Notes under the pieces: generated by a model | What the model was told of the DNA's origin: nothing | Seen by the model: only the letters and a program-made list of their open reading frames with translations | Database searches by the model: none | Part shown: in pieces, positions 1 through 17,644 of the stretch | How the letters are laid out: every line of letters begins with the position of its first letter | How positions within the stretch are numbered: position 1 is the first letter of the stretch | Program-made: the position numbers and the translations under genes | From: a virus | Taxonomy: Duplodnaviria; Heunggongvirae; Uroviricota; Caudoviricetes | Strand: one strand, 5' to 3' | Length of the DNA stretch: 17,644 nt | Virus record (IMG/VR): IMGVR_UViG_2737471835_000010 | Span: 1-17,644 of that record

Positions 1-1053
1 ATGAATTCATCTAGCGCATTTGCTACGCCTGTTGTTGCCAACAATAGTCAACAAGTATTATCTGATTTGATTACTGCGCTTGAGCAGACCAATCTATATT
101 CATTTATTTCTCAGATAGCAACTGTGTATGGATTTCCACCTGTTAAAGGTGGAATGGATGCGGTTTTGAAGGCAATCGAGGCATCTATACAGAATCCAAC
201 AACTGCATTTCCTAATGCTACATTAAATTCACTTGAGAAAATGATCGATAGAATAATAATTTCTGGTAGTAACTATTATTCTATTGACGAAACACAAGAC
301 CCAAATTTCCAAAGTGTGATCCAACATGTTTTTAGTACAAGTGTAACTGATTCAAGGTATGAAAATTCTTATCCAAGAAAGTTATATGATGGGAATTCAC
401 TTGGGAACAATGTCAAAGGTCTTTATCTGACTAAATTAATTGATACTGGCGATGGCTTTGCTTTTATTTTCTCATATGTTTATAGTGTTAAGATTAAGGG
501 AAGTCGCGGTTTAGGACTATCGTATACCCCACAGCAACAATTTATAACAGTATTTGTTCCCCATAATAAAAATAGGATCGAGTATCGTCTTCCAAAAAAT
601 TTAGGGAAACGGGAGACAGCAAAAGCGCTTGCATCGGTGCGTAATAAATTTTTTGATATGCTCATCAGTACTAATAATACTATTCATTTCAAACAATTGA
701 ATTTTTATAATGTGATCAATAGCATTATTACTGATAGATCGTTCGGGAAAGCAGTTCAGATAATTTATGTTGGTTCTAATACAGGTTGTGATGCTAATGT
801 CATTGGCCGCAAAGATCCGACATATGAAGCTCGAGATGTCGAGATTACTAATAAGAAAAGAAATGATATTTATACACCACGTGCTGTAGCCGTAAGATTT
901 TACAGAAATAATGGTGACTTTACAGAATTGGGTCTAGATCCAAATAAGAAATCTTGGTTGGATGATAATTTTTGTGGCGAATTTTATGTTGATTTTCCTG
1001 AAGATACAATCTCATTAAATGGTTTAATTGAAAATGTCATCTCACGAAAATGA
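1..1053 (+). CDS. Hypothetical protein (350 aa), first gene of AT-rich three-gene cassette; no recognisable domain
   Basis: Long uninterrupted ORF starting with ATG at window position 1. Composition is markedly AT-rich and rich in Asn/Ile/Tyr/Phe codons compared with the prophage to its right. Its stop lies just upstream of, or overlapping, the next ORF, consistent with an operon. No Walker A, HTH or catalytic motif recognised by eye. Confidence 0.6.
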   Translation: MNSSSAFATPVVANNSQQVLSDLITALEQTNLYSFISQIATVYGFPPVKGGMDAVLKAIEASIQNPTTAFPNATLNSLEKMIDRIIISGSNYYSIDETQDPNFQSVIQHVFSTSVTDSRYENSYPRKLYDGNSLGNNVKGLYLTKLIDTGDGFAFIFSYVYSVKIKGSRGLGLSYTPQQQFITVFVPHNKNRIEYRLPKNLGKRETAKALASVRNKFFDMLISTNNTIHFKQLNFYNVINSIITDRSFGKAVQIIYVGSNTGCDANVIGRKDPTYEARDVEITNKKRNDIYTPRAVAVRFYRNNGDFTELGLDPNKKSWLDDNFCGEFYVDFPEDTISLNGLIENVISRK

Positions 1054-1069
1054 TAGAATCAAGGTCATA

Positions 1070-1465
1070 ATGATGCTTTTGTCTGAACAAAGGATATTAT
1101 TGGATGAAATGAAAGATATCTTTCCTGAAGAAGATATCTTTCTATTCAATAATGTTTTGGATTTCATTCAAAATAATTATGATAAAAATTATTACCCGAT
1201 TAATGTATTAAGGCAAGCGGCAGGCTGTGAATCGGACTCGGATTTGCTAAAGTTAGTCCGTTATTTTTGTGGTGCACATTCTAAATTATTTAATATAACT
1301 TATTGCTATTATGATTTTGATGGTGAAGAAATCCCTATTTCAGCAGAATGCTACTATAATGCTCTGATTAGTGATATTTCTCCGATCAGTTTATTGTCTG
1401 GGCGCGAAATAGATGATTTCGATGTTAATAACATTTCTTTTTACTGTATATTAAATGTCAAATAA
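1070..1465 (+). CDS. Hypothetical small acidic protein, second gene of AT-rich cassette
   Basis: The ORF track opens at 1028 with a TTG codon. I prefer ATG at 1070, which follows an AAGG Shine-Dalgarno-like motif (1061-1064) and lies after the upstream stop at 1051-1053. The 3' end overlaps the next ORF by 11 nt. No recognisable domain. Confidence 0.5.
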   Translation: MMLLSEQRILLDEMKDIFPEEDIFLFNNVLDFIQNNYDKNYYPINVLRQAAGCESDSDLLKLVRYFCGAHSKLFNITYCYYDFDGEEIPISAECYYNALISDISPISLLSGREIDDFDVNNISFYCILNVK

Positions 1466-2252
1466 TTTTCTTCAAAATATAACACCTGCCGAATTAGCCG
1501 CGCTGGTAAACTTGAAGCCATTCGATGAGGATGTGTTTGTACAAAGTCTATATGCCGATATAAATAATGCAATTAAGCATATTGAGAAGACTGCGGATAA
1601 ATATTATTCAGATGATGAAGATAAGATCACTAATTTACTGGTTTTATTTCTCAAAGGTGTTGGGTACAACGCATCTGAACAAACAAAATCTAATGGTTCC
1701 GTCGATATTACAGTTCAGGATCGTGATCAGAGCTTTACTTGGCTCGCTGAAGCAAAAAGAGGGAATTCGTATAATGGTGTCTTTGAAGGCATGTTACAGT
1801 TAGTAACAAGATATATTTCTGATGAGAAACATGCAGGTTTCTTTATTTACCATCAGAAACTTGATTCATTAAGTTACTTTAAAAATTGGTTCAGCTACCT
1901 TAGCTCTGGTGATTTTGAAAAATATAAGGCTATTTCTGATAGGCTTGATGAGTGCCGATATCATTTTAAAAAGAGCCCCATAGCAAATGCGTTTACCGGT
2001 GATGAATGTTATTTTGACTACAATATAGTTTCAAAAAAGGGAAAAGAAGTAAAGGTTAGAAATTTTATTTTAAGTTTGCACTATAACCCTGCTGATAAAA
2101 GTGGACGAGAGAATAAATCCTTGAAGGTCGGACAAGCGAAAATTTATGTCAATGAAGTGTGTGACAAGTGGTTTCGTGAGCAAGAACCTCCTGAAGATAT
2201 TGATAAATTCATGAATTCACTACAATTAGTATTCCCTGAACTATTTGAATAA
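1455..2252 (+). CDS. Hypothetical protein with PD-(D/E)xK-like nuclease motif (putative effector), third gene of AT-rich cassette
   Basis: 265 aa ORF with ATG at 1455 overlapping the upstream stop. The translation contains GSVDITVQDRDQSFTWLAEAKRG, i.e. an Asp on a hydrophobic strand followed about 15 residues later by E-A-K, the spacing typical of the restriction-endonuclease-like PD-(D/E)xK fold. This is motif-level inference only. Confidence 0.6.
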   Translation: MSNNFLQNITPAELAALVNLKPFDEDVFVQSLYADINNAIKHIEKTADKYYSDDEDKITNLLVLFLKGVGYNASEQTKSNGSVDITVQDRDQSFTWLAEAKRGNSYNGVFEGMLQLVTRYISDEKHAGFFIYHQKLDSLSYFKNWFSYLSSGDFEKYKAISDRLDECRYHFKKSPIANAFTGDECYFDYNIVSKKGKEVKVRNFILSLHYNPADKSGRENKSLKVGQAKIYVNEVCDKWFREQEPPEDIDKFMNSLQLVFPELFE

Positions 2253-2270
2253 GTGCGCTAACGCGCACTT
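2251..2270. terminator. Perfect 8-bp-stem hairpin (AAGTGCGC-TAAC-GCGCACTT) between convergent cassette and int
   Basis: Inverted repeat read directly from the sequence; followed on the plus strand by a T-rich run (TCTAATTTTTATTT). It sits in the 23-bp gap between the cassette stop (2252) and the int stop (2276). Confidence 0.5.
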
Positions 2271-2275
2271 AGAGT

Positions 2276-3262
2276 CTAATTTTTATTTAATGTTGGTGTG
2301 ATGCGTATTTTTCTATCATAAACCATGACTTGTGATTCAGTTTTGTGCCCACTAAATAGCTGCTTTTCTTTTGATGATCCTTCATAGTCAGAAATTCCTT
2401 TAGCTTTCAGATCATGAAATGTACAATCCAGAGGTCTTCCAAGATAGTTGGCTGCCGCTGTTCTTGCTTTTCGCCATGCCTCATTAAACCCCTTGTAAGA
2501 GTAACGCTCTCCATACATGGTTTTAATTACTGACCCTGTTTCCCCCCACGATCTGCAAATATCAACTGCCGCGCGCAGGCGATCAGTCCACGCCTTGATC
2601 TGCTTAACTCCCGTCTTGCCCTGCTGAATAAAAATTCCTTTATCCATTATCTGCGGCCAGTCCATTTTCAAGACATCGGATACCCTCGCTGCACATAAAT
2701 AAGCTATTTCCATTGCGGCTTTAACTGGCTCACTGGCGTGTTCATAAATCGCCATGTATTCCTCATCTGTGATGTAGCGATCACGCTTTGGTTTAGGGAA
2801 TTTATCTACTCCAACGCAAGGATTTCCAGGAACATATCCTCGTTGGTATCCCCAACGAAATACCCGAGACATTGAACTGTGCTCATGGTTAGCTTGGACA
2901 CGACTTTTCTTTCCTCTGGCATCCATATACCGCCTTACATGTTCTGGTCTAATAGTCTTTGCTTCCGCTTCGCCAAAAACAGCAAGGAGATATTTTTCGT
3001 GGGCTAGATAATCCTTTTGAGTTCGTGGTGCCAAATCTGCATAATCGGCACTATTGAGAAATTTCTTCCAAAGCTGGGCAAAAGTTATTCGTCTTTTTCT
3101 CCCCTCTACAATTTTTTCAAAAGCAACCCAGACATCTGCTTTTGTTGCATTGGCTGATGCAATTTTTTCTGTTGTTCCCCCTGGTTTCCAGTAGTAGCCA
3201 GAAGGGCGGAAATATACCCCCTTCGGCATCCATTCATTACCAGGTGCTCGTTTTCGACCCAT
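2276..3262 (-). CDS. int: Tyrosine site-specific integrase (lambda Int family)
   Basis: 328 aa. The N-terminus MGRKRAPGNEWMPKGVYFRPSGYYWKPGG resembles the arm-binding region of lambdoid integrases. The catalytic domain has the typical R...H..R...Y layout (e.g. HDLKAKGIS ... SGHKTESQVMVYDRK). It lies directly next to an xis-like gene. Confidence 0.9.
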   Translation of the reverse strand: MGRKRAPGNEWMPKGVYFRPSGYYWKPGGTTEKIASANATKADVWVAFEKIVEGRKRRITFAQLWKKFLNSADYADLAPRTQKDYLAHEKYLLAVFGEAEAKTIRPEHVRRYMDARGKKSRVQANHEHSSMSRVFRWGYQRGYVPGNPCVGVDKFPKPKRDRYITDEEYMAIYEHASEPVKAAMEIAYLCAARVSDVLKMDWPQIMDKGIFIQQGKTGVKQIKAWTDRLRAAVDICRSWGETGSVIKTMYGERYSYKGFNEAWRKARTAAANYLGRPLDCTFHDLKAKGISDYEGSSKEKQLFSGHKTESQVMVYDRKIRITPTLNKN

Positions 3263-3266
3263 AATT

Positions 3267-3491
3267 TCACTCTATAGCATCAAAGTTCATACCCGGAGTG
3301 GGCGAGAAACCTGCTGGTGGAGCCAAACGATGAATGGGATGATTTATATGAAACCAGGTCGTTTTTACAGAACCGTCCCTGCGTTCAATAAAAAAAATGC
3401 CATTCTGCGTTAAGACTTCTTTCTGTAGTGACTTTTGGGAAGACCCTGTCGCCTCTATCAGTTCTTCATCAGTCAGGAAGCGGTTGCTCAT
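3267..3491 (-). CDS. xis: Putative excisionase / small DNA-binding protein
   Basis: Small ORF ending 4 nt upstream of the int start. The ORF track starts at a GTG (3506); I prefer the ATG at 3491, which has GGAG 9 nt upstream. The call rests on position and size, not recognised homology. Confidence 0.45.
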   Translation of the reverse strand: MSNRFLTDEELIEATGSSQKSLQKEVLTQNGIFFIERRDGSVKTTWFHINHPIHRLAPPAGFSPTPGMNFDAIE

Positions 3492-3553
3492 GAGTCTTTT
3501 CTCCACTTAGCCCGCTGCACACGGGCAGTAATATCAAATTTCAGTCCTGATAA

Positions 3554-3769
3554 TTAATTTTGTTCTCTGGTTGCTACCTGTTTAATTGGCCTGATGCTGT
3601 CCAGGAGCAGTCGGCGGCGCGTATTTTCTGCAAAGTGGCGGCGTCCGGTTTCTTTGTGGTAAAACTCGTTTTTTCCGACGACCCACATCCGCTTTGTCAG
3701 GTGCAGTTTTTTTACCTGCGGACCGTTTCGGGTAATAACAATTCCTGTATGAGTTTTTATCACGCTCAT
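3554..3769 (-). CDS. Hypothetical small basic protein (71 aa)
   Basis: ATG at 3769 overlaps the upstream gene's stop (ATGA) and has GGAGA 8 nt upstream. It is co-oriented with the early-left operon. The plus-strand ORF 3560-3808 over the same DNA was rejected. Confidence 0.45.
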   Translation of the reverse strand: MSVIKTHTGIVITRNGPQVKKLHLTKRMWVVGKNEFYHKETGRRHFAENTRRRLLLDSIRPIKQVATREQN

Positions 3770-4128
3770 TTCTTAGTCTCCGGTGCTTTCGGCATTACTG
3801 CCCAGTGAGTGATATTGACGTTTTCAAGATCCCCGACCTGAAATGTCCACTGCCATTCTCCAGTTTCTTTTTGCCCCCATGTGTACCAGAGAGAACGCCA
3901 GCCAATCAGCCAGCCTTCTCCATTAGCATCAAATAACAGAACACTTTCATTTGCTGGCGGTAGTTCAGCTGACACTGGTATTACTTTGTTTTCCAGTGCT
4001 GCACATTTAGCTTCAAGCGTATCGAATTTACGTACCAGGTATTCAGCATCCGTTTCATTCACTTTCAGATCTCGCGGTACACATTTCCCGCGAAGAAACC
4101 CTTCCATTTCGAAAAGATTCATGCGCAT
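3766..4128 (-). CDS. DUF551-like phage protein (YfdS-like, 120 aa)
   Basis: C-terminal pattern WLIGW...ITHWAVMPKAPE matches, from memory, the conserved end of DUF551 proteins. GGAG lies 8 nt upstream of the ATG. Same length as E. coli KplE1 YfdS. Confidence 0.65.
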   Translation of the reverse strand: MRMNLFEMEGFLRGKCVPRDLKVNETDAEYLVRKFDTLEAKCAALENKVIPVSAELPPANESVLLFDANGEGWLIGWRSLWYTWGQKETGEWQWTFQVGDLENVNITHWAVMPKAPETKK

Positions 4129-4655
4129 TTGCGTAACTCCGATAACTCGTTGAAGCGTTCTATAAACATCCCATAGGCATGGCCTGGCGACAGTGGAATA
4201 ACTTTGAACATCTCTGTTGCCGGGATACCTTCCAGTACAGGCCAGAAAGAGCCATCATCAAGCCCGAGATCGCGGCGTTCGGTTGCCAGCATGATGAGAT
4301 CGGCATATTTCACAGGCGTGCTCATAACCGTGGGTAACCCGTATTTCTCACGGATTACGGCGTCTATTTTTTCTTCCATCCGTTTATAGTCAGGAAGAAG
4401 GCGTTTCAGCGGCGCGGGGATGTCCTGGCAATACGCTTCTGTTGCATCATGCATTAACGCTTCAAAAGCAAATTCCTGCGGCACCAGCTGGCTGCAAAGC
4501 ACCGCATGTTGGGCGACACTGTAGAAGTGTGAAAGATGACCGGCAAAGCGACAGATATTTGAAAGGGAAACCGCGATATCGTTAATCACGATGTCGTCTT
4601 TATTTATCCTGTCATAATAAAAATGCTTCCCGGAAAAAGTTTTAATAAATGACAT
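4119..4655 (-). CDS. HD-domain phosphohydrolase (YfdR-like)
   Basis: His...His-Asp signature (SVAQHAV ... LMHDATEAY) typical of the HD metal-dependent phosphohydrolase superfamily. The ORF track start at 4685 is a GTG; I prefer ATG at 4655 with GGAG 6 nt upstream, giving 178 aa, the length of KplE1 YfdR. Confidence 0.8.
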   Translation of the reverse strand: MSFIKTFSGKHFYYDRINKDDIVINDIAVSLSNICRFAGHLSHFYSVAQHAVLCSQLVPQEFAFEALMHDATEAYCQDIPAPLKRLLPDYKRMEEKIDAVIREKYGLPTVMSTPVKYADLIMLATERRDLGLDDGSFWPVLEGIPATEMFKVIPLSPGHAYGMFIERFNELSELRKCA

Positions 4656-4782
4656 TTTGTTCTCCGCGTATATGTGCTGCACCACGCTGAATTCTGGTAA
4701 AAGGAAGCCCTCACCATCCGGCGATTATTGAGTCAATTACGTTTCCATAAATGCCCCCGCAGGGGCATTTGCAGTAATGAAA

Positions 4783-5607
4783 TCAGGCGGTGAAAGTACC
4801 AATAAAGGTTTCTACTTTGCTGTCTTTGAATTTCTCAACAAGCAGATCACGAAATTCGTTAGCCATTTCTTCCTGCACCGCCTCCAGCTGAATAATGCGC
4901 AGAACCAGTACAGGACGATCGCCAGTGATAATGCTGAGGCGTAATTTAAATGGACGTTCTTTCAGACCTTCAAACGGAACGCATTTAAATTCAAATGCCA
5001 CTGGCATAATATCTTTGGTTTTCGCTTCGACAGACTCCATCAGGGAGCGTTTGCCGCTGAAGTCATTATCTTCAAAATCAGCGGTCTGGTTTGCTTCAAT
5101 CGTGATTTTACGGACAGCCGCAGCCGCTTTTGTTGCCTGAATAGCGTCACCATTAGCATCAAAGCCCACAAGGTAGTCGGCCCAGTCTTCAATCCATTCT
5201 GCCAGTGACTTCTGGGAATGACGCTCGCCATTAACAGACAACAGAGCAGAGAACGGTGCTGTCTTTTTCAGTTTGAGAGTGGCGGTGTTATCTGCGTGAC
5301 CTGGTTCATCAATAGTACCCAGGTTAAGCACACTGACGGCTCGCATATTATCGGCATCGATAAAGCAGCGGGTGCCTTCATCTGCAAGATCTTTAGAATA
5401 ACGGGTAAAGTCATCGATGCTGGCAGTGGAAAGCGCACCACGGAAACGGAAGCGATTTAAATTAAATTTTTCCAGATCATGAATGCGGAAATTCTCAGGC
5501 AATGCCACAGCATCGGCACCAATCTTACTGATAATTTCATTAACACCCTGAGCAGAAATAAGAGCATGGATTTGATTAATTGCGGTTGCGTCTAAGTTCT
5601 GAGACAT
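4783..5607 (-). CDS. YfdQ-like protein (DUF2303 family), function unknown
   Basis: 274 aa, the same length as E. coli KplE1 YfdQ and in the same gene order as yfdP-yfdQ-yfdR-yfdS. GAGGA lies 7 nt upstream of the ATG. Family assignment is from memory. Confidence 0.7.
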
Positions 5608-5672
5608 AATAAGTCCTCACTATATAAAGATATTCAGTGATGAGATAAATAATCAGTTAATTAAGAACGATA

Positions 5673-6045
5673 TTAATGACCTGCTGCGCGAAGTTTTCCG
5701 TCAGGTTCACCGGCAAGAGTCAGTAATTGTCCCTGGTCTTCCTGCAGAATAGTCAGGCGACCACCGCGATTGACATACATCGGCGTTTCGGTGGTGTCTT
5801 CTTCAGAAATTTTCCCGCGGTTAGTCGGGCGAACATATGAGAGTTTGTGTTTGATTTTCACACGGTTCTCATCAAACGGTTCGATTTCCAGGTTGAGCGA
5901 GACCTTACCTTTGGTTTTCGTGTTCATCACACCGGAAGCGACTTCACTGAGAACAGCGCCGATTTTGGTTTCAAATACGCCGCCGTCCAGCTCCCCGATA
6001 AATGCCTGCACATCAGTACTGCGTTCGCTAGCCATTTTGCTGCTC
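5673..6045 (-). CDS. Hypothetical early-left protein (YfdP-like)
   Basis: The ORF track extends to 6266, but the only start with a ribosome-binding site is ATG at 6045 (GAGGAG 7 nt upstream), giving MASERSTDVQAF... (124 aa). The upstream extension overlaps a highly structured non-coding region. Confidence 0.6.
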
Positions 6046-6083
6046 CTCATCATATCGACCCTGCAAGGTCGGTTGGTTTCTCC

Positions 6084-6172
6084 ACAAAACAGAGAAGAAC
6101 ACCTGCGGTGACTGCCGCCCGGATGGATTGGGTTATGAGCCCGTCGTCCGGTGATGCTCTTCTCTGTTTTGT
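6084..6172. repeat. 15-bp perfect inverted repeat (ACAAAACAGAGAAGA ... TCTTCTCTGTTTTGT) flanking a 59-bp GC-rich spacer
   Basis: Read directly from the sequence: arms at 6084-6098 and 6158-6172. It would form a long hairpin in the 5' leader of the YfdP-like gene, immediately downstream (minus strand) of the terminator at 6173-6218. Confidence 0.6.
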
Positions 6173-6235
6173 AAAAAGAGCGGTACCAGCCGGAAGCAAG
6201 GGTACAAACTGGTACCGCCAAAGCAGTGGCTGTTG
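6173..6235 (-). ncRNA. Candidate small RNA 3' end / intrinsic terminator in the early-left leader (possibly DicF-like)
   Basis: On the minus strand a 10-bp perfect stem (GCGGTACCAG / CTGGTACCGC, 6180-6218) is followed by UCUUUUU. The segment UUUGGCGGUACCAGUUUGUACCC resembles my recollection of the E. coli DicF sRNA. This is unverified memory; extent and identity are uncertain. Confidence 0.3.
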
Positions 6236-6643
6236 TGGTGGGGTTGTCACTCAGGCGTATGGTCAACCTGACAATCCGGTGTCCTCAACGGGGAAAGAGT
6301 AACCCCGCCATACTTACCGCCGCGCCATTTCGCGGATTACCACAACGCTGAGAGCACTTAGCCAGTTACGGCACCACACTTTGTCGCGGCTCCATAAATG
6401 CCCTCATCGTTGCACCCTGGTCTCTTCCCAGGCGTCAAACCGAATCGCCACGCTGGTTAGGCGTCTTATCAGCATCATCATTGACTTGCACATTCCGGCT
6501 ACCTGGTTTGTTTGCCCGAGCAAGGAGTGGATTGTCCCCTTTAACGTCCCCAGACCGCTAACGACGCATGTGCCATACGCCGTGTTACAACCAAATTTTG
6601 TTAGTACCTTGTTTGTTTGTCTGGAAAGAAAGATAAAATGAAG

Positions 6644-6682
6644 TTGCGCATTATGCAAGTGTTTTTGTTGCGAGATATGCAA
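6644..6682. promoter_or_regulatory. Putative OL operators: two 15-bp sites TTGCGCATTATGCAA and TTGCGAGATATGCAA
   Basis: Two copies of a TTGCG-N5-ATGCAA dyad-symmetric motif lie 9 bp apart just downstream of the cI terminator. A third copy (TTGCGCGTTAAGCAA) lies in the cI-cro intergenic region. Confidence 0.45.
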
Positions 6683-6692
6683 TTTAAAGGGT

Positions 6693-6717
6693 AATGAAAA
6701 GCCACCTTTGGGTGGCT
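6693..6717 (-). terminator. Rho-independent terminator downstream of the cI-like repressor
   Basis: Minus-strand hairpin AGCCACC-CAAA-GGTGGCT followed by TTTTCATT, 20 nt after the cI stop. Confidence 0.65.
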
Positions 6718-6737
6718 AATTGATGAGGAGGTAAGGG

Positions 6738-14026: not shown

Positions 14027-15079
14027 ATGAAAAATACTGTAAAAATAAACAGTGTTGATTTAATCAACGCTGATTGCCTGCATTTTATTCAGTCCCTGCC
14101 TGATGATTCCATTGACCTGATTGTTACCGATCCGCCGTACTTCAAGGTGAAACCCAACGGCTGGGACAATCAGTGGAAAGGGGACGAAGATTACCTTAAG
14201 TGGCTGGACCACTGTCTGGCCCAGTTCTGGCGGGTGTTAAAACCTGCCGGAAGCCTTTACCTGTTCTGTGGGCATCGCCTGGCATCTGATATTGAGATCA
14301 TGATGCGTGAACGTTTCAACGTGCTTAACCATATCATCTGGGCGAAGCCGTCCGGACGTTGGAATGGGTGTAATAAAGAAAGTCTGCGCGCATATTTTCC
14401 TGCCACAGAGCGCGTTCTGTTTGCTGAACATTACCAGGGGCCATATCGCGGCAAAAGTGACGGCTATGCAGCAAAAGAAAGGGAACTCAAACAGCACATA
14501 ATGGCACCGCTGATATCGTATTTCAGGGATGCTCGTGCCGAACTGGGTATAACGGCAAAACAAATTGCCGAAGCCACAGGTAAGAAAAATATGGTTTCCC
14601 ACTGGTTTGGTGCCAGTCAGTGGCAGTTGCCGAATGAGGCTGACTATCGGAAGTTACAGGCACTGTTTTCCCGTATAGCGGCAGAGAAGTTTCAGGAACA
14701 ACAACTGGAACAACCACACCACCAGCTGGTGGCATCTTATGATTCACTGAATCGTAAATATTCTGAATTGCTGGATGAGTTTAAATCTCTCCGGCGCTAT
14801 TTCTCCGTATCAGTCTCCGTGCCTTATACCGATGTCTGGATGCATAAACCCGTTCAGTTCTACCCGGGGAAACATCCGTGTGAGAAACCGGCGGATATGC
14901 TCAGGCAAATAATCAATGCCAGTAGTCGACCAGGTGATCTGGTTGCTGATTTTTTTATGGGATCCGGTTCCACAATAAAAGCAGCAATGGCGCTGGGGCG
15001 TCGGGCCTTAGGTGTTGAGCTTGAGTCAGAGCGGTTTAATCAGACAGTGAAAGAGATAAACGAGCTGGTGGGGAAATAA
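14027..15079 (+). CDS. DNA methyltransferase, beta-class amino-MTase (probably N6-adenine), orphan
   Basis: Motif IV DPPY (LIVTDPPYF) near the N-terminus and motif I FxGxG (DFFMGSGST) near the C-terminus, the order typical of beta-class N6A/N4C methyltransferases. No restriction endonuclease partner is adjacent. Confidence 0.9.
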
Positions 15080-15085
15080 TCTGGT

Positions 15086-15111
15086 GGCCACGTCAGGTGG
15101 CCTTTTTATTT
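15086..15111 (+). terminator. Intrinsic terminator-like hairpin (GGCCAC-GTCAG-GTGGCC followed by TTTTTATTT) after the methyltransferase
   Basis: Read directly from the sequence, 7 nt after the methyltransferase stop and upstream of the holin. Confidence 0.55.
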
Positions 15112-15146
15112 CCATTACACAGCACCCGCATCTGCGAGGTGGGGTT

Positions 15147-15362
15147 ATGAAATCCATGGATAAGTTAACAACGGGTGTCGCCTATGGCACCTCAGCAGGT
15201 AGTGCCGGGTACTGGTTTTTACAGTTGCTCGATAAAGTCACGCCCTCACAGTGGGCGGCAATAGGTGTGCTGGGTAGTCTGGTATTTGGCTTGCTGACGT
15301 ATCTGACAAACCTTTATTTCAAGATTAAAGAAGACAAGCGTAAGGCTGCACGGGGAGAGTAA
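15147..15362 (+). CDS. S: Pinholin, phage 21 S21 family (dual-start MKSMDK motif)
   Basis: [71 protein letters not shown] is near-identical in pattern to phage 21 S21 as I recall it. GAGGTGGGG lies upstream of the ATG. The ORF-track start at 15084 was rejected. Confidence 0.9.
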
Positions 15363-15366
15363 TTCA

Positions 15367-15717
15367 ATGACTCAAAACTATGAACTGATTGTGAAAGGGA
15401 TCCGCAATTTTGAGAATAAAGTTACGGTAACTTTAGCGTTACGGGACAAAAAACGTTTTGACGGTGAAATTTTTGACCTGGACATCTCGCTGGACCGTGT
15501 TGAAGGTGCCGCGCTGGAGGTTTATGAGGCAGCAGCCAGAAGGAGCATCAGACAGGTCTTCCTGGATGTTGCTGCCGGGTTATGTGAAGGGGATGAGCAG
15601 TCGCCGGAAAAGCGCCCCGTAATTTTAGATGCGCAGAATGTTTGGATAACCTACAAAGGAAAGCTACCAGGAAGAATTACTGGTTCTCTGAAGACTCCTC
15701 CGGAATCACAACCTTAA
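15367..15717 (+). CDS. Hypothetical soluble protein (116 aa) inserted between holin and endolysin
   Basis: Clean ORF 4 nt after the holin stop. No transmembrane segment and no recognised motif. Confidence 0.5.
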   Translation: MTQNYELIVKGIRNFENKVTVTLALRDKKRFDGEIFDLDISLDRVEGAALEVYEAAARRSIRQVFLDVAAGLCEGDEQSPEKRPVILDAQNVWITYKGKLPGRITGSLKTPPESQP

Positions 15718-15780
15718 GTCACTGACCGGAACAGATAAACCTGTCCGTGGGCAGAAACCGATAAATCCTGATAAATATCC

Positions 15781-16314
15781 ATGAACGCAAAAATCAGATA
15801 CGGCCTGTCGGCTGCCGTTCTGGCACTGATTGCCGTCGGTGCGCCCGCGCCTGATATTCTCGACCAGTTTCTGGATGAAAAAGAAGGTAACCACACAACG
15901 GCATACCGCGATGGGTCCGGCATCTGGACCATCTGTCGGGGTGCCACGATGGTGGATGGAAAACCCGTTTTTCCCGGTATGAAACTGTCGAAGGAAAAAT
16001 GCGACCAGGTCAACGCCATTGAGCGTGATAAGGCGCTGGCATGGGTGGAGCGCAATATTAAAGTACCACTGACCGAGCCACAAAAAGCGGGTATCGCGTC
16101 ATTTTGTCCCTATAACATTGGCCCCGGTAAGTGTTTTCCGTCGACGTTTTATAAGCGGCTGAATGCTGGTGATCGTAAAGGTGCATGCGAGGCGATTCGC
16201 TGGTGGATAAAAGATGGTGGGCGCGATTGCCGCATACGTTCAAATAACTGCTATGGACAGGTTATTCGTCGTGACCAGGAAAGCGCATTAGCCTGTTGGG
16301 GGATAGATCAGTGA
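15781..16314 (+). CDS. R: SAR endolysin (T4-lysozyme-like glycoside hydrolase, R21-like)
   Basis: N-terminal weakly hydrophobic Ala/Gly-rich signal-anchor-release segment ([18 protein letters not shown]), followed by a catalytic E...D...T region ([20 protein letters not shown]). Located right after the pinholin, as in phage 21. Confidence 0.9.
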
Positions 16315-16778
16315 GCAGAGTCGCCGCGATTATTTATGCTCTGGTTATCTGCATCATCGTCTGCCTGTCGTGGGCGGTCAATCATTACCGTGATAACGCC
16401 ATCGCCTACAAAGAACAGCGTGATAAAAAAGTCAGTGAGCTGAAGCAGGCGACCGCCACCATTACTGACATGCAGCAACGCCAGCGTGCTGCTGATGTAC
16501 TCGATGCTAAATACACGAAGGAGTTGGCTGATGCGAAAGCTGAAAATGATGCTCTTCGGCGCAAGCTTGATAATGGTGGTCGGGTGCTCGTCAAAGGAAA
16601 ATGCTCTGTGCCATCCTCAGCCGAAACCTCCAGCGCCTCCGGCATGGGCAATGATGCCACCGTCGAACTCTCTCCAATTGCTGGACGAAACGTTCTCGGT
16701 ATCCGGGACGGAATCATCAGAGACCAGACAGCACTGAGAACGCTTCAGGAATACATCAGGACGCAATGCCTTCGATGA
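16311..16778 (+). CDS. Rz: Rz i-spanin
   Basis: GTG overlaps the endolysin stop (GTGA), with GGGGGA 7 nt upstream. The ORF track offers a TTG at 16296. N-terminal TM segment ([17 protein letters not shown]) then a charged coiled-coil-like region. It contains the embedded Rz1 ORF. Confidence 0.8.
16531..16737 (+). CDS. Rz1: Rz1 o-spanin (lipoprotein) embedded out of frame within Rz
   Basis: AAGGAG 8 nt upstream of the ATG. Lipoprotein signal with lipobox LIMVVGC, followed by a proline-rich segment ([16 protein letters not shown]). Entirely inside Rz in another frame. Confidence 0.75.
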
Positions 16779-16952
16779 TAGCGATAATTTTACTCATCAT
16801 CCTTCACATCTGGCTCTGTAGACAGGGTGGTGATCACTTCTGGAGTAAATCCAGATTAAACATCTCATTGCTGATGCTTGATATTGAGCATCTGGCGCGC
16901 AGTAAGGGGCTGCGTTGAGATAAGAGCCAGTTCATTACAAATACCAGGATTT

Positions 16953-16978
16953 AGCCTCGCATTCGCGGGGCTTTTTAT
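16953..16978 (+). terminator. Intrinsic terminator-like hairpin (AGCCTCGC-ATTC-GCGGGGCT followed by TTTTAT)
   Basis: 8-bp stem with one G-U pair plus a T-run, in the non-coding gap between Rz and rha. Confidence 0.5.
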
Positions 16979-17120
16979 ATCTGAATTTCACAGCGCATCT
17001 CACGCGCATATTAACGAGAGCCTTTCAGTAAGCGAGCCTGAGAAATGCCGTTATAGGTGGCGACCTCTCTCGGGCGGCTTTTCTGTGAGACAGGCTCACT
17101 TTCTAAAAGGTAAAGACGCT

Positions 17121-17644
17121 ATGAATAATCATTCAGTTATTCCAGCCTTCGACTTCCGAGAAATGGTGCAAGCCAAAAACGGAGAGGTCGTTACCACATC
17201 CAGAAAAATTGCCAAGTACTTCGGCAAGCGACACGGTGATGTTCTCAGGAAAATCGAGCAGGTTAAGGCTGATTGCTCGCGTGAGTTTAGCCAACGCAAT
17301 TTTCGTCGGCTGATTATATCGATGAGCAGGGCAAGGTTCGCCCGATGTACAGCCTGACGAAAGATGGCTGGATCATGGTTGTGATGGGGTTCACCGGGAA
17401 AGCTGCTGCGGCAATCAAGGAGAGCTATATCGCAGCATTCAACTGGATGGCAGAGCAACTGAGCCGCCGCATGGCAATTGGCGAAGAAATGCAGCACCGC
17501 TACGCCATCAAAGAAACACGCTCAAAGCTGAAAGGTACGATCGGCAGTCGGTTAATGAACGAACGGAAGAAAGAGAAGCGTGTCCTGGCTGTCGAGCATG
17601 AATACATCTTGCAGGTGACACAGCCTGAACTGCTGATTAATTGA
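17121..17644 (+). pseudogene. rha: Rha-family phage regulatory protein, interrupted by a frameshift near 17300-17312
   Basis: The N-terminal part (MNNHSVIPAFDFREMVQAKNGEVVTTSRKIAKYFGKRHGDVLRKIEQV...FSQRNF) is in one frame and stops at 17355-17357. The expected continuation (ADYIDEQGKVRPMYSLTKDGWIMVVMGFTGKAAAAIKESYIAAFNWM...) is in another frame that ends at 17644. A single-base indel in or near the TTTTCGTCGGCT segment explains the break. Confidence 0.6.

Follow-up and report, generated by a model that had tools for sequence, protein, structure and literature searches.

A probable anti-phage module at the integrase edge of a serU prophage, related by homology to DS-21

At the integrase-proximal edge of a prophage found in Escherichia coli lie three adjoining AT-rich genes, and the question they raise is what such a unit does for the phage or the host that carries it. 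The genes (hereafter A, B and C, together the trio) occupy the first 2252 positions of the DNA analysed here, namely positions 1 to 17,644 of the IMG/VR virus record IMGVR_UViG_2737471835_000010 (Caudoviricetes); this whole stretch of 17,644 nt is called the window. Sequence comparison places the trio, as a divergent branch, in the DS-21 family, which was catalogued in 2022 and validated in 2026 through a distant homologue, and we consider it probable that it acts as a prophage-borne anti-phage (superinfection-exclusion) module of that family. What the present analysis adds is an RdgC-like fold predicted for protein A, the occurrence of the trio in at least five phage or island contexts, including the interval between Q and stx1, and the recognition of its AT-richness as a family trait.

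DS-21 (clone 'TOXO') is a validated three-gene anti-phage system described by DeWeirdt et al. (Science 2026; PMC13092281), and its proteins measure 365 aa (with an HeH/SAP motif at residues 16-48), 140 aa and 211 aa, the last being a remote PD-(D/E)xK protein. In K-12 it confers phage-specific protection with no toxicity reported (PMC13092281): the efficiency of plating (EOP) falls by 10^4.5 for Bas1 and by 10^2 for Bas11, while Bas3, Bas9, Bas67 and T3 form small plaques (Table S7, PMC13092281). The trio shares with DS-21 the gene order, similar protein sizes, the HeH/SAP N-terminus of the first protein and the PD-(D/E)xK character of the third. When the families were aligned with hhalign, DS-21A matched the A family with a probability of 97.0% (E = 8e-11, 295 columns) and DS-21C matched the C family with a probability of 99.7% (E = 2e-25). 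BLASTP aligned DS-21C directly with protein C of the window (27% identity, E = 1e-18), including the ED, D and EAK residues; the window protein is the longer of the two, with ~55 extra C-terminal residues that form a helical tail (residues ~215-265). The anti-phage phenotype was measured for DS-21 itself, whereas the subfamily present in the window is known here from sequence.

Earlier catalogues also contain the trio. Entry 145 in Table S5B of Rousset et al. (2022), labelled 'DUF5939 | DpnII-MboI', consists of the same three proteins; it is listed, uncommented, as occurring 14 times in P2 hotspots of E. coli (PMC9122126). Its A protein is 32% identical to that of the window (E = 3e-55) and its B and C proteins are clearly homologous; entry 145 stands in the P2 gpA-gpQ hotspot, whereas the window copy stands in a lambdoid prophage between att and int. 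Motif searches did not find entry 145 in the tables of tested systems of the same study. Another system of that hotspot, Rst_3HP ('hp + hp + hp', pFR109), validated against P1 (PMC9122126), was suspected of being identical to the trio because it too comprises three hypothetical proteins from the same place. This identity was rejected: the Rst_3HP proteins (333, 359 and 227 aa) are unrelated to the trio, with hhalign probabilities of 0.3-0.6% against the A and C families. The DefensePredictor study lists an E. coli protein of the cluster WP_139336025.1 as a 'Predicted novel defense gene', with a cluster mean log-odds of 9.39 against a strict cut-off of 4 (PMC13092281), and this is the exact RefSeq accession of protein B of the window. 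A literature search of main texts by RefSeq accession found no paper; the accession of B stands in a supplementary table of the DefensePredictor study. The main text of that article (PMC13092281) discusses neither DS-21 nor its mechanism, and the word RdgC does not occur in it.

Where the trio resides bears on its function as well. It lies inside a ~39-kb prophage integrated at serU, in the classic cargo ('moron') position between attL and int, because the 3' 70 bp of the tRNA-Ser gene, which stands 137 bp upstream of gene A, recur at its opposite end, at a distance of ~39 kb. The att repeats thus flank both the trio and int, in agreement with the initial annotation of the window, which had placed the trio as cargo at the int-proximal edge of a prophage. 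The same DNA is found between tRNA-Ser (beside mtfA) and int in 16 of the 5426 complete E. coli genomes. At the mtfA/tRNA-Ser site of Enterobacteriaceae the trio forms a cassette with int and a DUF4224 gene, which occurs in E. coli, Klebsiella and Atlantibacter together with differing prophage backbones. A nucleotide search of a phage collection gave no match. As the first base of the window is that of the gene A start codon, both attL and the promoter region fall outside it. The best sigma-70-like site (TTGAGA-16-TATCAT, 10/12) was located 53 bp upstream of the A start codon, between tRNA-Ser/attL and gene A (positions 11920-11947 of L001, the locus that contains the window), and could be the native promoter.

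The search for the trio elsewhere, proposed at the outset as a check, revealed a conserved unit. In all fetched loci of sufficient length, family hidden Markov models (HMMs) recovered the order A-B-C with the same small overlaps, as expected of the single functional unit that had been suggested, and no locus lacks a B-like gene between A and C. The A family is tiny: clustering of 1.84 billion proteins at 50% leaves it 28 representatives, the full-length ones measuring ~340-365 aa. Homologues of B and C follow even the most distant A proteins (P0047, P0055 and a protein of an Stx1a phage). Apart from the lambdoid att-int position, the trio is found in the interval between the portal gene (gpQ) and gpA of P2-like prophages of Enterobacter and Rahnella and of many IMG/VR contigs, where it takes the place of old/tin-type cargo; in seven Stx1a-converting phages, where it occupies the opposite strand between Q and stx1A; beside int in a 14.8-kb Vibrio prophage of the Vinavirales; at the end of one Pantoea prophage; and, in one metagenomic island, directly beside a PD-T4-6-like kinase and the Septu proteins PtuA (1e-139) and PtuB (4e-76). 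Rousset et al. (2022; PMC9122126) define the P2 gpA-gpQ interval as a defence hotspot. The trio is thus mobile cargo with at least five contexts (lambdoid att-int, P2-like, Stx1a phages, Vibrio Vinavirales and beside Septu), and all named hosts of the full set are Enterobacterales or Vibrio. Together with the homology to DS-21, the P2 and Septu-adjacent locations support what had been proposed from the sequence, namely a candidate anti-phage system made of unfamiliar partners and a nuclease effector.

Several of these loci have features of their own. The metagenomic copy is a distant one, and in its defence island (L043 3164-4603 and 8482-10591, minus strand) the PtuA/PtuB pair follows immediately downstream, the PD-T4-6-like Ser/Thr kinase, UmuDC and an integrase being upstream of the trio. 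P2-like carriers have two conserved small ORFs (open reading frames) of 102 and 119 aa between the trio and gpA (L029 10472-10780 and 10784-11143, plus strand), and in Rahnella an extra ORF of 355 aa precedes the trio (L007 5703-6770, plus strand); PADLOC returned no match for any of the three. Prophages of a Klebsiella type carry a 76-79% variant of the trio. Further genes in them (L002 16497-19664, L037 11799-14689, L039 15424-16341) specify a ParB-like protein, a dATP/dGTP pyrophosphohydrolase and a DndB/DGQHR protein, which may form a DNA-modification module, and their early-left region contains the gene of a true phage RdgC (PF04381).

Other results weigh against the assignment to the DS-21 family and to defence. 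The identity with the validated system is just ~13% for A (hhalign of DS-21A with the A family) and 27% for C, and the match between DS-21B and B is weak (hhalign probability 32%, E = 5e-4), the aligned region being co-linear. The sole promoter-like site upstream of A scores no better than chance. Moreover, A, B and C have no match in the libraries scanned, PADLOC-DB v2.0.0 (2023; zero families at E <= 1), Pfam (2025) and NCBIfam (2026), so that the PADLOC scan proposed in the initial annotation came back empty; searches of the PDB by sequence and by profile yielded noise alone. The view of that annotation that the three proteins match no recognised family holds for Pfam, NCBIfam and PADLOC, but the novelty it attached to them is overstated, the family having been catalogued in 2022 and predicted and validated by DefensePredictor in 2026.

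The three genes are real and under strong purifying selection (Table 1), because comparison with the 79%-identical variant of E. coli L37 gave dN/dS ratios of 0.07 (A), 0.09 (B) and 0.07 (C); synonymous sites were almost saturated in this comparison. Together with the conservation, these ratios ruled out chance ORFs or a pseudogene. The ORF call returned three overlapping or abutting plus-strand frames, as first described. Gene B has three possible starts, TTG 1028 (145 aa), ATG 1034 (143 aa) and ATG 1070 (131 aa), which would leave between A and B an overlap of 26 nt, an overlap of 20 nt or a gap of 16 nt, respectively. An AAGG lies 7 nt upstream of ATG 1070, and the N-terminal extension provided by ATG 1034 is also present in some B homologues. 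Genes B and C overlap by 11 nt. In E. coli E-ge-1 (NZ_CP158503.1), the match to window positions 1-2400 is split in two by an IS1B insertion and four hypothetical coding sequences are annotated there, one trio gene being apparently disrupted.

Table 1. Coordinates of the trio and of other features of the window.
Feature	Position	Strand	Description
gene A	1-1053	+	350 aa, isoelectric point (pI) 8.6; ORF call
gene B	1070-1465	+	131 aa from RefSeq start; accession WP_139336025.1; pI 4.1
gene C	1455-2252	+	265 aa; stop codon 2250-2252
hairpin	2250-2271		perfect 9-bp stem, 4-nt loop; includes gene C stop codon
int	2276-3262	-	tyrosine recombinase, PF00589, E 6e-10; prophage context, outside the trio module
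orphan DNA methyltransferase	14027-15079	+	PF01555 N6_N4_Mtase, E 2e-42

Base composition sets the trio apart from the rest of the window, with 33.5% G+C in positions 1-2252 versus 49.1% in positions 2276-17644, values close to the ~30% and ~50% that had been estimated by eye; G+C at third codon positions (GC3) is 0.24-0.29. The initial annotation took the low G+C as a sign of recent horizontal acquisition, which the comparison among loci does not support. In 31 of the 34 loci computed, the G+C content of the trio is 10-20 points below that of its flanks, and the proteins of these loci have diverged to ~30% identity; therefore, the AT-richness is a standing property of the trio family and no mark of recent transfer.

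The searches with HMMs and structures that had been suggested for the three proteins were informative for A and C. The predicted model of protein A is of high quality (predicted local distance difference test, pLDDT, 89.9; predicted template modelling score, pTM, 0.88). Its N-terminus contains a helical SAP/HeH-like region (residues ~12-88), and its body is predicted to adopt an RdgC-like DNA-binding fold of the TBP-like class that includes RdgC, RexA, Iml3 and Chl4. A fold search of BFVD with the model returned several phage RdgC proteins. The E. coli RdgC structure (PDB 2OWL; PF04381) has the same fold as the model at 8% identity; protein A differs from it in having the additional SAP/HeH N-terminus and in being always paired with B and a nuclease. 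Kinship at the level of sequence was rejected, with an hhalign probability of 0.1% against phage RdgC and no similarity to lambda RexA, and the Pfam scan of the A sequence gave no PF04381 match. As for the N-terminal module, a protein of 2267 aa (P0054) matches the A profile at positions 44-97 alone (the SAP/HeH-like 'YGF...W' part) in six separate stretches, which suggests that this module occurs elsewhere as a tandem repeat.

The fold brings to mind the Rex exclusion system, which is 70 years old, and the RdgC relatives Iml3-Chl4, which sit on DNA as horseshoe-shaped heterodimers. RdgC itself forms a ring dimer on double-stranded DNA. Lambda RexA, the DNA-binding part of Rex exclusion, was assigned to the RdgC/Iml3/Chl4 fold class by crystallography (PMC11077077). 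In the literature searched, RdgC is named in no other defence paper than this one. Lambda RexAB is, like the trio, prophage-encoded exclusion cargo, and the fold class of RexA is the best match of the A model, albeit with no sequence similarity between A and RexA. The two systems differ in their effectors, a membrane protein in RexAB versus a nuclease in the trio. RexAB relies on RexB, a partner with four transmembrane segments, whereas all three trio proteins appear soluble: since none of them has a transmembrane segment (maximal Kyte-Doolittle score over 19 residues, 0.69-0.82), the trio contains no RexB analogue.

Protein B is soluble and acidic, with a pI of 4.1 here and of 4.1-5.6 in homologues, and it has no match in Pfam, PADLOC or the PDB. 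HHpred labels published for B homologues read DUF5939 (PMC9122126, PMC13092281), with a probability of 0.94 in the case of DS-21B (PMC13092281). hmmscan did not reproduce this label, PF19363 being found in none of the 15 B proteins, DS-21B included.

Protein C is predicted to be a PD-(D/E)xK nuclease, because its AlphaFold model (pLDDT 81) has the alpha-beta-beta-beta-alpha-beta core of restriction endonucleases and because the residues E55, D84, E99-A-K101, Q115 and Y120 do not vary among 16 diverse homologues, whose identity falls to ~27%; E55, D84, E99 and K101 are the catalytic candidates. The PD-(D/E)xK-like motif that had been noticed in the third protein is thus upheld by fold and invariant residues. 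No Pfam or NCBIfam nuclease model scored above threshold. Among the 16 proteins, Pfam gave sub-threshold matches to Mrr_cat (3/16, best E 0.005) and PDDEXK_9 alone, and the published DpnII label was not reproduced, no Pfam DpnII match being present in any of them. The sole PHROGs result is a match to one unannotated family. The predicted fold of C also resembles those of CdiA-CT toxins of the PD-(D/E)xK type. CdiA-CT toxins come with immunity proteins.

From the predicted folds and the architecture we infer the following sequence of events, in which the roles of sensor, adaptor and effector, the trigger and the target of the nuclease are all proposals. Protein A would use its SAP/HeH motif and its RdgC-like body to bind DNA and serve as sensor or scaffold, sensing, or loading onto, the DNA of an invading phage or intermediates of replication or recombination, in parallel with the proposal made for lambda RexA. 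By analogy with Rex, the system could be triggered by a structure in phage DNA or by an intermediate of protein and DNA. The signal may then pass from A to nuclease C, either directly or through the small acidic B as adaptor; B might hold C inactive until A is triggered. C would cut DNA, be it phage DNA or, in an abortive-infection mode, total DNA. If this model is correct, the trio would offer a soluble, three-part model of DNA-structure sensing in phage exclusion, and serU prophages would arm ~0.3% of sequenced E. coli genomes with the system. We also advance, tentatively and with considerable doubt, the more general idea that A stands for a class of RdgC-fold immune DNA sensors which, like RexA, would encircle or clamp invading-phage DNA or intermediates of replication or recombination, but would license a PD-(D/E)xK nuclease via a small acidic adaptor instead of a membrane effector. 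Should this be true, Rex exclusion would be linked mechanistically to a modern nuclease-based system, and a tractable soluble model for infection sensing by RdgC-fold proteins would be at hand. The interest of the trio lies in its mechanism, above all in the RdgC-like fold of A and in a logic that it may share with RexA.

Defence might also take the form of Dam-dependent or otherwise methylation-sensitive restriction without a methyltransferase of its own. In that case C would be a BamHI/BglII/DpnII-type (GATC-core) enzyme that cuts unmethylated phage DNA, host Dam or the orphan methylase of the prophage would shield the chromosome, and A would provide DNA loading or specificity. The 'DpnII-MboI' label given independently to the C homologue in the Rousset table speaks for it, and yet none of the 16 diverse C proteins shows the Pfam DpnII domain, the sub-threshold Mrr_cat and PDDEXK_9 matches being all that was found. 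Enterobacterales and Vibrio are Dam-positive clades, and every named host of the full trio belongs to one of them, but this host range may reflect database sampling. Dam-family methylases occur in P2-like carriers and an N6_N4 methylase in the window prophage (Table 1); the latter, however, lies ~12 kb from the trio and is not inherited along with it, none of the contexts examined has a methylase gene next to the trio, and phage-borne methylases are common anyway. We regard this variant as improbable.

Two further explanations would take the trio out of primary defence. The first would make the trio a prophage-stabilising module of the toxin-antitoxin or addiction type, with nuclease C as toxin, acidic B as the matching antitoxin, A as regulator and defence as a secondary effect. 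The small size and acidity of B, the position of its gene immediately 5' of the nuclease gene with the 11-nt overlap, and the likeness of C to CdiA-CT toxins all fit such a pair; however, a two-part toxin-antitoxin system needs no 350-aa A protein, which is as conserved and constrained as B and C. Moreover, the sites of the trio are defence hotspots, unlike those of generic cargo, and DS-21 gives phage-specific protection in K-12 with no toxicity reported. This explanation seems to us about as unlikely as restriction. A role as recombination or replication accessory of its own phage, that is, an RdgC-like RecA modulator plus a nuclease for lytic growth or induction, is the least credible of the three, and we give it very little weight. 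RdgC proteins do inhibit RecA, and phages do encode RdgC, as in the early region of L002 and in several BFVD entries. Nevertheless, the trio stands apart from the early operons, at the edge of the prophage and converging on int; it moves among unrelated replication and recombination backgrounds (lambdoid, P2-like, Vinavirales) and in P2 replaces cargo of the old/tin type; a true phage rdgC coexists with it in L002 and L039; and DS-21 works alone from a plasmid against heterologous phages. An anti-phage module of the DS-21 family thus remains the probable reading of the trio.

At its 3' end the trio converges on int, the two stop codons being separated by a 23-bp gap, and the perfect hairpin first noticed there was confirmed (Table 1). 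It reads TAAGTGCGC-TAAC-GCGCACTTA, and its RNA has a folding energy of -13.9 kcal/mol on the plus strand and -14.8 kcal/mol on the minus strand (z-scores of -2.6 and -4.3, respectively). The consensus terminator scan did not call this hairpin because the T-run begins 13 nt past the stem. At the same position between C and int, relatives keep a hairpin, with an altered loop (L002, L037) or a wholly different stem sequence (L034, L006). The hairpin is likely a bidirectional transcription stop or an RNA-stability element.

Elsewhere in the window, the N6_N4 methylase gene lies 3' of a Q-like antiterminator and 5' of the lysis genes, a typical cargo slot. The early-left operon contains a frameshifted hypothetical gene, considered a pseudogene by RefSeq (~6051-6361, minus strand; L001 18051-18361), as well as genes for a YfbR-like HD 5'-deoxynucleotidase (weak Pfam match) and a DUF2303/YfdQ protein (4119-4685 and 4783-5607, both on the minus strand), which are ordinary lambdoid accessory genes.

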